A DNA stretch of 24,000 bases from an uncultured Actinomycetes bacterium (GTDB lineage: Bacteria; Actinomycetota; Actinomycetes; Nanopelagicales; Nanopelagicaceae), in contig CAILHY010000028.1 of assembly GCA_903834145.1 (NCBI GenBank), positions 6,325 through 30,324 on the forward strand, read 5' to 3'. The notes under the pieces were generated by a model, which saw nothing but the letters and a program-made list of their open reading frames with translations, searched no databases and had not been told where the DNA came from. This document shows, one piece after another, positions 10,577-14,703 of this stretch (positions are counted from its first letter, which is position 1; every line of letters starts with the position of its first letter). The position numbers were made by a program, and so were the translations under genes.

Positions 10577-11320
10577 TTGTTGCGGAGGTGGGAATTGCTG
10601 TCGTTTATTCTTCTTGTCATCACGGGATTTGTTGTTGGGACAATTAATGGAATGGCAGGTGGAGCTTCCCTGATTTCATTTCCCATCTTGTTGGCACTAG
10701 GTCTCAATCCAGTGACTGCCACCGTGACAAATGCTGTTGGGATAACGAGCGCAAATCTCTTTGCGGTGCGCGCAAGTGATCAAAGTGCAAAAAAACTAAT
10801 CCGTGCATTCAAATATCATATAATTTTGGCATCAATATTTGCCTGCATAGGTGCGATGCTATTGCTGGCTCTTCCTTCACGTGTATTCGAAGGTGTGGTT
10901 CCATACTTGCTTTTGGGAGCAACGCTTTCAATTCTCATTCCAGCAAAAGCCCGAGAAGGCATGAGAAACACTGTTGCCGAATTCATGGCCACAGCAGCAA
11001 GTGGTTTTTACTGTGGCTATTTCGGACCAGGGCAAGGAGTGATGGTTATTGCACTCCTGTCCCGAGACAAAAATCGGGACCCCAAGACCATCAATGCCGT
11101 GAAAAATGTAATTACAGGCATTACAAGTGTGATTTCCAATATTATTTATATCTTCAGTGGCAGGGTGCACTGGCTATTTGCTGCAGGATTATTTATCGGA
11201 TCAAGTTTTGGCGGAACTTTAGGCGGCAAATGGGCGAATAAAATGCCACCGATCTTTTACAAGTCCTTGGTCTTTGCCGTAGGAATCATTGCCTCGGTTT
11301 GGCTCTTTGTTCGCAATTAA
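10577..11320 (+). CDS. TauE/SafE-family anion (sulfite/organosulfonate) exporter-like membrane protein
   Basis: The protein is polytopic and hydrophobic. It has the family-typical motif GTINGMAGGASLISFPILLALGL and a second half with GYFGPGQGVMVIALL. I trimmed the start to the TTG at 10577 (or 10580). The ORF-track extension from 10370 is non-hydrophobic and lies antisense inside the neighbouring gene. Confidence 0.7.
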   Translation: MLRRWELLSFILLVITGFVVGTINGMAGGASLISFPILLALGLNPVTATVTNAVGITSANLFAVRASDQSAKKLIRAFKYHIILASIFACIGAMLLLALPSRVFEGVVPYLLLGATLSILIPAKAREGMRNTVAEFMATAASGFYCGYFGPGQGVMVIALLSRDKNRDPKTINAVKNVITGITSVISNIIYIFSGRVHWLFAAGLFIGSSFGGTLGGKWANKMPPIFYKSLVFAVGIIASVWLFVRN

Positions 11321-12036
11321 ACCAGATCAAGTATTCCCTCTTCGGTCATAATCTGGCTGTACCGCAGCCGATCTTCGTCGCTGACCTCTGCCCACGTCCT
11401 GGCTGATGCCCTGACTCCATGACTCATGAATGCATTAATTTTTACTCGTACCGATGGATCGGCGCGAAGCAACCACTGAGCGGTCTTGCGCAATTCCTCA
11501 TCGGAATCATTCTGACCGGGAATGAGTAAGAGCCTGACTTCGTATAACTTTCCACGTGAGGCCAAATATTTTATTGTCTCAAGTACTGCCGTATTGGATT
11601 GCGTAGTCAGGGCGATGTGGCGTTCGTTATCGAGCACTTTAAGGTCCAGCATCACTCCATCGGTGACAGGCAGAAGCACTTCCCAAATATGTTTTTCCGC
11701 ATTTCCGTTGCTGTCGATAAATGTTGTGAGTTGTTTAAGATCTGGCGCGGCTTTTATCGCAGCAAAGAGATCAAAGAGAAATTCATGTTGAACTGTTGCT
11801 TCCCCACCTGAAACCGTTACGCCGGTTATGTAGGGGAGTGACTCTCGGATCTTGGTGAGCACCTCCTCGACGGAGTAATCCTTGGCGCGAGGGGTTTGCA
11901 AAGGAATAGTTTGAGGATTGTGGCAGGCAAGGCAATTGAAGTTGCATCCTTGCAGAAAGAGAACGAACCTATTTCCTGGGCCATCAACCCAGGAAAACTG
12001 AATGACGTCAGCTACTTGCGCGTGGTGAGCTCTCAT
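11317..12036 (-). CDS. Glycyl-radical enzyme activating protein (radical SAM, PflA/YjjW-like)
   Basis: The sequence [27 protein letters not shown] combines the activase N-terminal motif with the CX3CX2C radical-SAM cluster. VSGGEATV is the SAM-binding GGE motif. The protein is 239 aa, and its start overlaps the end of the upstream putative glycyl-radical enzyme by 29 nt. Confidence 0.8.
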   Translation of the reverse strand: [239 protein letters not shown]

Positions 12037-13555: not shown

Positions 13556-13674
13556 CCTAAGTCGCACTATGGGTGGGAAATAGGAAAGAGGGCTGCTCGG
13601 CCACCCCTTCGACACTCTTTGAGGGCTAGCACTTGATGGGAGCAGTTCTGTGCTCGAGGTATTAGCCTCTGGGG

Positions 13675-14703
13675 ATGTCAATCACCTCAGGTAACCCGGC
13701 TTTTGAGATTTATGCAGCAATTGGCGATGACCAACTCGAGTCACTGGCTCCGCTTCCCGCTGGTGGCTTCACGCGAGAAACTTTGAGGGTCGCACTTGTC
13801 CAAGATTTGTGGCACGGATCTATGGACGCGCAAATGGAATCGCTTGAAGGCGCCATCGATCTCTGTGCGGAATATCAACCAGATCTCATCGTCTTGCCCG
13901 AGCTCACTCTCTATCCCTATGCGTGTTGGCAACCCAATTCACAAGAATCTGATTTTCATCCCGAGGATCTCATGGAAGGCCCCTCGTACGTGTTTGCTCG
14001 GAAGATGGCACGGCGCGTAAAAGCGACAGTGGTTATTTCTCTCTATGAAAATCCGGATGATGAAAGCGAACTGGGTTACAACACTGCGATAACTCTTTCA
14101 CCAGCGGGTGAACTCGTCATGCGCACTCGCAAAACACATTTGCCACAAACAGCAGGATATTTTGAAAATACATATTTCAGTTGTGGCAATGATGGAACCC
14201 CTGGTGCGATCGTTGGCGAAGCAATCGTGGGAACGCCAACGTGCTGGGATCAATGGTTTCCTGAATTGGCTAGGGCATATGCACTCGAAAGCGCCGATGT
14301 TGTGATCTATCCGACGGCAATCGGCTCTGAACCAAATTTTCCACACTTTGATACCGCGCCATTGTGGAAGACAACAATGGTTGCCCATGCGATCGCTAAC
14401 GGACTCTTTGTTGGTGCCGTCAATCGCGTTGGCACTGAAGGGCCTAATACTTTTTATGGCTCCTCCTTTATTGCCGACCCATTTGGTCGCACATTGGTAG
14501 AGGCGGGAAGGGATGAGCAGGCAATTCTGATCGCCGATTGCGAGCTTGATCAACGAAGAGATTGGTTGACCCTCTTCCCATTCTTTAAGACCCGGCGCCC
14601 TGAGATGTACACATCCCTTGTTGCCGAGGAAGATGAAGCCCTTCAGCAAGTGGAGCAAGTGGAGCAAGTGGAGCAAGTGGAAGAAAAGGGAGATAGTCAA
14701 TGA
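13675..14703 (+). CDS. Carbon-nitrogen hydrolase, N-carbamoylputrescine amidase (AguB)-like
   Basis: The nitrilase-superfamily catalytic triad context is present: Glu in VLPELTLYPY, Lys in RKTHLPQ, and Cys in GTPTCWDQWFPELAR. CWDQWFPE is the block I associate with AguB. An alternative start is the TTG at 13783, just before LRVALVQ. The C-terminal tail carries a QVE repeat. Confidence 0.8.
   Translation: MSITSGNPAFEIYAAIGDDQLESLAPLPAGGFTRETLRVALVQDLWHGSMDAQMESLEGAIDLCAEYQPDLIVLPELTLYPYACWQPNSQESDFHPEDLMEGPSYVFARKMARRVKATVVISLYENPDDESELGYNTAITLSPAGELVMRTRKTHLPQTAGYFENTYFSCGNDGTPGAIVGEAIVGTPTCWDQWFPELARAYALESADVVIYPTAIGSEPNFPHFDTAPLWKTTMVAHAIANGLFVGAVNRVGTEGPNTFYGSSFIADPFGRTLVEAGRDEQAILIADCELDQRRDWLTLFPFFKTRRPEMYTSLVAEEDEALQQVEQVEQVEQVEEKGDSQ
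14646..14681 (+). repeat. Perfect 9-bp tandem repeat (GCAAGTGGA x4), in frame in the tail of the C-N hydrolase
   Basis: Read directly from the sequence: gcaagtgga occurs at 14646-14654, 14655-14663, 14664-14672 and 14673-14681. It encodes QQVEQVEQVEQVEE. Confidence 0.95.

Follow-up and report, generated by a model that had tools for sequence, protein, structure and literature searches.

Glycyl-radical enzymes carry a radical that is destroyed by O2. The eliminases among them (glycerol/propanediol dehydratase, choline lyase and isethionate lyase) have a Cys-x-Glu loop and are at least 780 amino acids (aa) long, and glycyl-radical sulfonate lyases exist. A much shorter protein, YjjI, occurs together with the activase YjjW in Escherichia coli (b4380/b4379) and Haemophilus influenzae (HI0521/HI0520). 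E. coli YjjI is still an uncharacterised putative glycyl-radical enzyme in a 2026 preprint (bioRxiv 10.64898/2026.08.13.742689), in which Gly465 of the protein reacted with a radical probe in vivo. In enteric bacteria the pair belongs to anaerobic life: the E. coli yjjI gene is directly activated by FNR (PMC3688515), and in Yersinia intermedia without oxygen yjjI was induced 4.3-fold and yjjW 2.1-fold (PMC3792023). A role in nitrogen metabolism, put forward from co-expression, is the sole functional proposal that we found for YjjI (PMC3228777). Here we report on a yjjI-yjjW pair in a stretch of 24,000 nucleotides (nt) from an uncultured Actinomycetes bacterium (assembly GCA_903834145.1, contig CAILHY010000028.1, positions 6,325 to 30,324 of the forward strand), which is called the window throughout.

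An earlier note on this DNA had proposed a YjjI/YjjW-type enzyme and activase, placed in a sulfur/one-carbon neighbourhood and possibly acting on an organosulfur or small anionic substrate. The analysis described below upholds the first part of this proposal and largely removes the second. The YjjI family is already curated; the interesting parts are its setting in Nanopelagicales (acI), and an association with nucleoside genes that is seen across the family.

The window YjjI scored 670.1 bits against TIGR04040 (curated cut-off 498.3), in a match that spans positions 2-496 of the 497 in the profile, and 643 bits against PF11230 (YjjI-like). Along its entire length it has 45% identity to E. coli YjjI, and the two share the RxTGY motif with Gly465, the cysteine of VSCYNS, the gene order and a 29-nt overlap with the activase gene. 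The family is compact, with 488 clusters at 50% identity reaching E<=1e-3, many of them fragments. YjjW scored 252.2 bits against TIGR04041 (cut-off 250.2), a marginal match in two stretches. The marginal score is explained by the lack of the ~46-aa ferredoxin-like two-cluster insert of E. coli YjjW (two CX2CX2CX3C motifs). The E. coli activase has 287 aa with this insert, whereas window YjjW has 239 aa, a single cluster site and 3 cysteines in total; CNFNCLAC lies at residues 31-38 and the GGE S-adenosylmethionine (SAM) motif at residue 77. On these family scores, both above cut-off, the window genes are assigned as a genuine YjjI/YjjW-family glycyl-radical enzyme and activase, as had been supposed.

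Activases of 232-246 aa, all without the insert, were found in acI and other Actinomycetes, whereas Acidimicrobiia homologues carry it. Short activases (222-251 aa) also occur in unrelated lineages, one of them archaeal. Judged by this distribution the short activase is a recurrent variant, and gives no reason for exclusion from the YjjW family. Other models scored lower against window YjjW (PflA 149 bits, other glycyl-radical activases 90-115 bits, NrdG models lower still), so that it groups with PflA-type activases and not with NrdG or peptide-maturase families.

Both open reading frames (ORFs), their overlap and the FIRITGYLV stretch were present in the ORF listing as the earlier note had described them. 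The yjjI ORF as called has 557 aa from a TTG start (12008-13681, minus strand). Because the match to PF11230 and TIGR04040 begins at residue 52 of this ORF, homologues are 511-515 aa long and an AGGA lies 8 nt upstream of the ATG at 13546, the true protein has 512 aa (ATG 13546, the likelier start) or 515 aa (ATG 13555). The TTG start at 13681 was rejected as an ORF-calling artefact. Residues are numbered here according to the 515-aa form.

Conservation was assessed in an alignment of 24 diverse homologues, including 17 representatives at 32-60% identity from a library of 1.84 billion proteins. Gly465 and Arg462 of RITGY were invariant in 24/24 sequences, and Cys233 of VSCYN was the only invariant cysteine; further invariant positions were E60, R68, Y69, D148, H157, N184, R248, E303, H376, Q378, R392 and R499. 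Three cysteines had been named as candidates in the earlier note, and those of FACGKPHF and PYCEGN were rejected as catalytic candidates since they vary among the 24 homologues, leaving that of VSCYNS. The cysteine loop reads Cys233-Tyr-Asn235, with a nearly invariant Asn. In sequence and profile comparisons Cys233 aligns with Cys419 of pyruvate formate-lyase (PFL) and with the loop cysteine of NrdD ('pmgC' in E. coli NrdD), and RITGY aligns with RVSG734Y of PFL, Gly465 taking the position of Gly734.

An AlphaFold2 model of YjjI was built on a 34-sequence alignment (predicted local distance difference test score 89.2, predicted template-modelling (TM) score 0.89). In a Foldseek comparison with the PDB, class III ribonucleotide reductases ranked first (E 2e-17, TM ~0.7, 13-15% identity), followed by PflD, YbiW, hydroxyproline dehydratases (HypD), PFL and other glycyl-radical enzymes. 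There were 111 PDB matches at E<=0.001, the best 50 of which were all glycyl-radical enzymes. The predicted structure thus has the ten-stranded alpha/beta glycyl-radical barrel that the earlier note had suggested looking for. A sequence search of solved structures gave PFL as the sole match (E 0.017) and none for YjjI itself.

Of the described systems, PFL (PflB/PflA) is close in its glycine motif (IRVSGYAVR, compared with IRITGYLVR in the window); the cysteine loops align, and the window activase is of the short PflA-like type. PFL differs by a Cys-Cys pair in place of Ser-Cys and by its length of ~760 aa, YjjI being ~250 residues shorter, and the sequence match is at E ~0.02. PflD and YbiW, which we take to be dehydratases, belong to the same barrel superfamily and are among the top fold matches, but are ~770-810 aa long and fall in the PFL-like clade; in sequence they are no closer to YjjI than membership of the superfamily implies. 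Their structures were solved with 1,5-anhydrohexitol-6-phosphates, indicating that members of the superfamily bind phosphorylated sugar derivatives. From the glycyl-radical eliminases, the window protein differs by its Cys-Tyr-Asn loop and its length of ~512 aa.

The best structural match is the class III reductase NrdD, in which the thiyl cysteine and the C-terminal glycine loop are equivalently placed. This nearest solved fold, together with weak NRDD Pfam matches in some homologues and a nucleoside-salvage context in many lineages, would fit a divergent ribonucleotide or ribonucleoside reductase supplying deoxyribonucleotides without oxygen or B12. We consider such a function quite improbable: the identity to NrdD is 13-15%, no second conserved cysteine is present (R68-Y69 occupy the position of Cys175, the second active-site cysteine of E. 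coli NrdD), the ATP cone is missing, and the activase is PflA-like and not of the NrdG type that serves NrdD. The Zn ribbon is missing as well, with zero cysteines downstream of Gly465, in agreement with the earlier observation that the protein has no Cys4 zinc site. As there is a single invariant cysteine and no reductase apparatus, an elimination or rearrangement would be expected rather than a reduction.

The window was compared with 80 related genome loci, mostly from Nanopelagicales, in which all window proteins were searched by tblastn. The yjjW gene follows yjjI in 75 of these loci, and the remaining five are contig ends. The overlap between the two genes is 29 or 32 nt in 40/49 related loci and is also 29 nt in E. 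coli K-12, which suggests translational coupling. Between the window and its closest relative (L001), the proportions of nonsynonymous and synonymous differences are pN 0.05 and pS 0.74 for both genes, with dN/dS ~0.02; synonymous sites are saturated in comparison with all other relatives. Both genes are therefore under strong purifying selection and are maintained, not decaying. The absence of a family match, a variable glycine, an activase of another family or an unconserved gene pair had been named beforehand as grounds for abandoning the proposal; on every one of these points the outcome favoured a glycyl-radical pair.

In Planktophila-type loci (L005-L032, L049) a 14-nt palindrome-like motif, GAGYGCCAGCACTC, was found upstream of yjjI. 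Its matches in 1.06 Mb of related loci number 28, and 25 of them lie 51-75 nt upstream of yjjI, counted from the position that aligns with the window ATG at 13555. The common spacings, 65 and 75 nt, are about one helical turn apart, and the motif is kept whatever the upstream gene is. A -10-like TATGAT box lies a few bases before the yjjI ATG in the same type of loci, and from this position the leader may be short or missing altogether. Compared with Rfam at E<=10, the upstream region gave nothing above noise, and it showed no consensus RNA fold; a riboswitch was rejected on these grounds. For the same reasons GAGYGCCAGCACTC is probably a protein-binding site, that is, a candidate operator. 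The window itself has a degenerate copy, AAGTGCTAGCCCTC, of tentative standing. A promoter/terminator scan returned 0 promoter-like sites and was uninformative.

The best matches are freshwater metagenome-assembled genomes (MAGs) labelled Planktophila, Nanopelagicaceae or Actinomycetes, together with a complete Nanopelagicaceae chromosome of 1.4 Mb. This chromosome is among the dozens of species-level genomes in which the pair was found. The host is a streamlined, Nanopelagicales-like freshwater actinobacterium, in line with the oxic-water organism that had been supposed from the letters. A 2025 study of Nanopelagicales isolates reported aerobic respiration and 0 occurrence in 16 anoxic samples, with radical enzymes unmentioned (PMC12817590), and our literature search found no mention of YjjI in acI/Nanopelagicales. 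This absence from anoxic samples, and the destruction of the glycyl radical by O2, might indicate that the acI genes are a decaying relic without function in an oxic lifestyle. Such a relic is extremely improbable, given the intact frames with all catalytic residues, the low dN/dS, the conserved upstream motif and the many genomes, the complete one among them, that carry the pair.

More distant relatives were collected by scanning metagenomes with aligned homologues from outside the Actinobacteria. The 80 loci obtained are mostly from organisms of low GC content, with YjjI 34-43% identical to that of the window. Neighbouring ORFs were clustered and the cluster representatives annotated; distant representatives were also looked up. 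The commonest neighbours were a two-domain ATP-binding cassette (ABC) ATPase, BPD_transp_2 permeases and a Bmp/PnrA-type binding protein, usually immediately downstream on the same strand. Many loci have the same-strand order yjjI, yjjW, Bmp/PnrA, ABC-ATPase, permease, permease, and others the order yjjI, yjjW, NupC, DeoD-like. NupC-type nucleoside transporters, DeoD-like phosphorylase, IU_nuc_hydro hydrolases, PNP_UDP_1 phosphorylases and PfkB kinases recur, with nucleoside hydrolase, phosphorylase and PfkB genes lying upstream of yjjI in further loci. DeoB, an adenosine-deaminase fragment and PsuK/PsuG were each seen in single loci.

When lineages were defined as YjjI clusters at 70% identity, 10 of 24 had a nucleoside-specific family within 5-6 genes, and 15 of 24 did so if generic ABC and PfkB labels were counted. 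The association reaches the Actinobacteria, in which L029, L035, L036 and L043 (73-80% identity) carry the Bmp-ABC genes directly after yjjW, and E. coli, in which yjjI and deoCABD are divergent neighbours. Such genes are estimated to make up ~1/1000 of all genes, and on this estimate, which is not a matched control, it is very unlikely that they would adjoin yjjI by chance in many lineages. In L002 and L003 a psuG-psuK pair lies one gene from yjjI and is collinear with it, and PsuK and PsuG also adjoin yjjI in L124, a low-GC metagenome lineage that is unrelated. A link of the window psuG/psuK genes to yjjI is possible. Taken together, the recurring neighbours point tentatively to a ribosyl or nucleoside substrate.

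Two further contexts were noted in the distant set. In L087, L088, L091, L159 and L162, yjjI is immediately preceded by a sulfatase/phosphodiesterase-superfamily gene (~511 aa); these loci represent two distant lineages and have nucleoside hydrolase and phosphorylase genes alongside. In L173-L175 a YjjI homologue and a short activase are found among archaeal translation genes (eIF-1a, NMD3, RIO1, eIF-2B), and the family therefore extends to the Archaea.

The nucleoside neighbours could instead be inherited synteny around a working glycyl-radical enzyme with another substrate, for example a central or nitrogen metabolite. In E. coli, yjjI shares a co-expression bicluster with the nar genes, which comes with an FNR motif (PMC3228777), and is a direct target of FNR (PMC3688515), and in many lineages nucleoside genes are not nearby. 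FNR control, however, indicates anaerobic use only. The partner genes also differ by lineage (ABC transporter or NupC, hydrolase or phosphorylase, upstream or downstream of yjjI), and therefore argue that the association arose repeatedly and was not inherited as a single block. We regard a non-nucleoside substrate as rather unlikely.

Several points weigh against the explanation that we prefer. Nucleoside genes are absent near yjjI in 9-14 of the 24 lineages, in most acI loci and in one archaeal context, and in the window the sole nucleoside-catabolism genes near the pair are psuG/psuK, 8 kb away. When six representatives were additionally looked up (several on contigs that were too short), a nucleoside link was seen in 1 of 4 informative cases. 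The enrichment rests on the rarity estimate given above. An enzyme with an O2-labile radical is also unexpected in bacteria that are reported to be absent from anoxic samples. Our literature search found no biochemical function assigned to any member of the YjjI family and no link between YjjI and nucleosides.

With these points included, the overall best explanation is a conserved YjjI/YjjW pair that performs the radical chemistry set out below, with a nucleoside-derived compound as the best guess for the substrate, and we consider this explanation as a whole a little more probable than its contrary. YjjW, with one [4Fe-4S] cluster and SAM, would generate a 5'-deoxyadenosyl radical, which would take a hydrogen from Gly465 of YjjI and leave a stored glycyl radical. 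The Gly465 radical would then oxidise Cys233 to a thiyl radical, and this in turn would abstract a hydrogen from the substrate inside the ribonucleotide-reductase-like barrel. We infer this order, from Gly465 to Cys233 to substrate, from established glycyl-radical chemistry. That the substrate is a nucleoside, or else ribose or ribose-phosphate that comes from a nucleoside, is a tentative assignment to which we give somewhat less than even chances. It might be added, speculatively, that the many invariant Arg and His residues would suit a phosphorylated or polyhydroxylated ligand.

Positions of the pair, its predicted sites and the other features of the window are given in the table.

Table. 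Features of the 24,000-nt window, in window coordinates
Feature	Position	Strand	Basis
yjjI, YjjI-family glycyl-radical enzyme	12008..13555	-	PF11230 and TIGR04040 scores, AlphaFold2 model
yjjW, radical-SAM activase, short form, 239 aa, single [4Fe-4S] site	11317..12036	-	TIGR04041
Gly465 codon in RITGY, predicted glycyl-radical site	12161..12163	-	Invariance, alignment with PFL Gly734
Cys233 codon in VSCYN, predicted thiyl-radical cysteine	12857..12859	-	Sole invariant Cys
CNFNCLAC, CX3CX2C radical-SAM cluster motif of YjjW	11923..11946	-	
29-nt overlap of yjjI 3' end and yjjW start	12008..12036	-	
AAGTGCTAGCCCTC, degenerate copy of motif GAGYGCCAGCACTC, tentative candidate operator	13621..13634	-	
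TauE-family gene	10370-11320	+	PF01925, 122 bits
Homocysteine S-methyltransferase-family gene	9663-10556	-	
TIGR03767-family metallophosphoesterase	8102-9712	-	
CN-hydrolase gene	13675-14703	+	
Amidohydro_3 gene	14700-16325	+	
psuK-like PfkB kinase	21940-22833	-	Pfam PfkB
psuG-like pseudouridine-5'-phosphate glycosidase	22839-23933	-	Pfam Indigoidine_A
GyrB/ParE-like gene, 691 aa	6022-8097	+	
Short topoisomerase-IV-A-like gene, 513 aa	20372-21913	-	
SAM-IV riboswitch	2396-2507	+	97 bits, gathering score 38
Alpha/beta-hydrolase ORF resembling MetX	2515-3612	+	

The sulfur and one-carbon genes that the earlier note had read beside the pair are present, since family searches identified both the convergent TauE-family gene and the homocysteine S-methyltransferase-family gene after it. 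TauE ends 4 nt into yjjW with the S-methyltransferase gene next, and an isethionate sulfite-lyase structure is among the Foldseek matches of YjjI. These facts could be taken to mean that YjjI cleaves an organosulfur compound or small anion, with TauE exporting the sulfite or anion and the methyltransferase in the same sulfur/one-carbon module. The TauE gene is, however, convergent and hence on a separate transcript. The genes for TauE, methyltransferase, phosphoesterase, CN-hydrolase and amidohydrolase lie beside the pair in only one of the 80 related loci, L001, a near-identical MAG with a YjjI 93% identical to that of the window. In L002 and L003 (84% identity) yjjI-yjjW lies directly between the topoisomerase-IV-A-like and GyrB-like genes, which are 12 kb apart in the window, and none of the TauE, methyltransferase, phosphoesterase or hydrolase genes is beside it.

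Among distant homologues, no TauE- or sulfonate-type gene was prominent in the frequent or labelled neighbour clusters of 87 further loci, or around the six representatives that were added later. YjjI also has an Asn where the Cys-x-Glu loop of the eliminases has Glu. The neighbourhood survey thus largely refutes organosulfur cleavage, which appears very improbable, and the co-occurrence of TauE and methyltransferase genes with the pair, proposed earlier as a clue to function, did not hold beyond L001. We conclude that these two genes are not part of the yjjI-yjjW system.

From the synteny in L002 and L003, the window is read as two lineage-specific inserted blocks, 8102-11320 and 13675-20340, around a conserved pair. 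The second block holds, besides the CN-hydrolase (aguB-like, 209 bits, below cut-off) and Amidohydro_3 genes, two ABC permeases, an SBP_bac_8 protein and an ABC ATPase with a TOBE domain, and looks like a module for uptake and hydrolysis of a nitrogen compound. In the first block, the metallophosphoesterase scored 361 bits against TIGR03767 (cut-off 331), and the methyltransferase is betaine-homocysteine-methyltransferase-like (278 bits, below the cut-off of 338). As called, the ORFs of these two overlap by 50 nt, one start probably being miscalled, and the TauE ORF overlaps the methyltransferase gene at its start at 10370, the true start probably being later. In Planktophila-type loci, pst-phoU and a two-component system lie upstream of the pair and an aminotransferase and a decarboxylase downstream, as labelled by sequence reading, not by family search. 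The SAM riboswitch noted before the metX-like gene was confirmed as a SAM-IV riboswitch; it lies directly upstream of that gene, 9 kb from yjjI-yjjW, and is unrelated to the pair. This locus may serve as a cautionary example, its suggestive TauE and methyltransferase neighbours being lineage-specific insertions.

E. coli is a facultative anaerobe in which the deo operon adjoins yjjI, whereas the window host is an aerobic streamlined actinobacterium without it. With a single possible catalytic cysteine identified and a fold closest to ribonucleotide reductase, the question of what YjjI does becomes more tractable, and nucleoside transporters and nucleoside-cleaving enzymes as recurring partners reduce the compounds to be screened as substrates to a few dozen that can be bought. 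It is conceivable, although we consider it doubtful, that aerobic lake Actinobacteria act on ribose phosphate, or on salvaged nucleosides at their ribosyl part, by a radical step so far undescribed. If true, this would imply glycyl-radical chemistry in bacteria thought to be confined to oxic water, and would concern one of the E. coli glycyl-radical enzymes that still lack an assigned function. An oxygen-sensitive radical enzyme is maintained by strong selection in the most abundant lineage of freshwater bacterioplankton, and could mark a low-oxygen physiology of these bacteria that has so far gone unrecognised.

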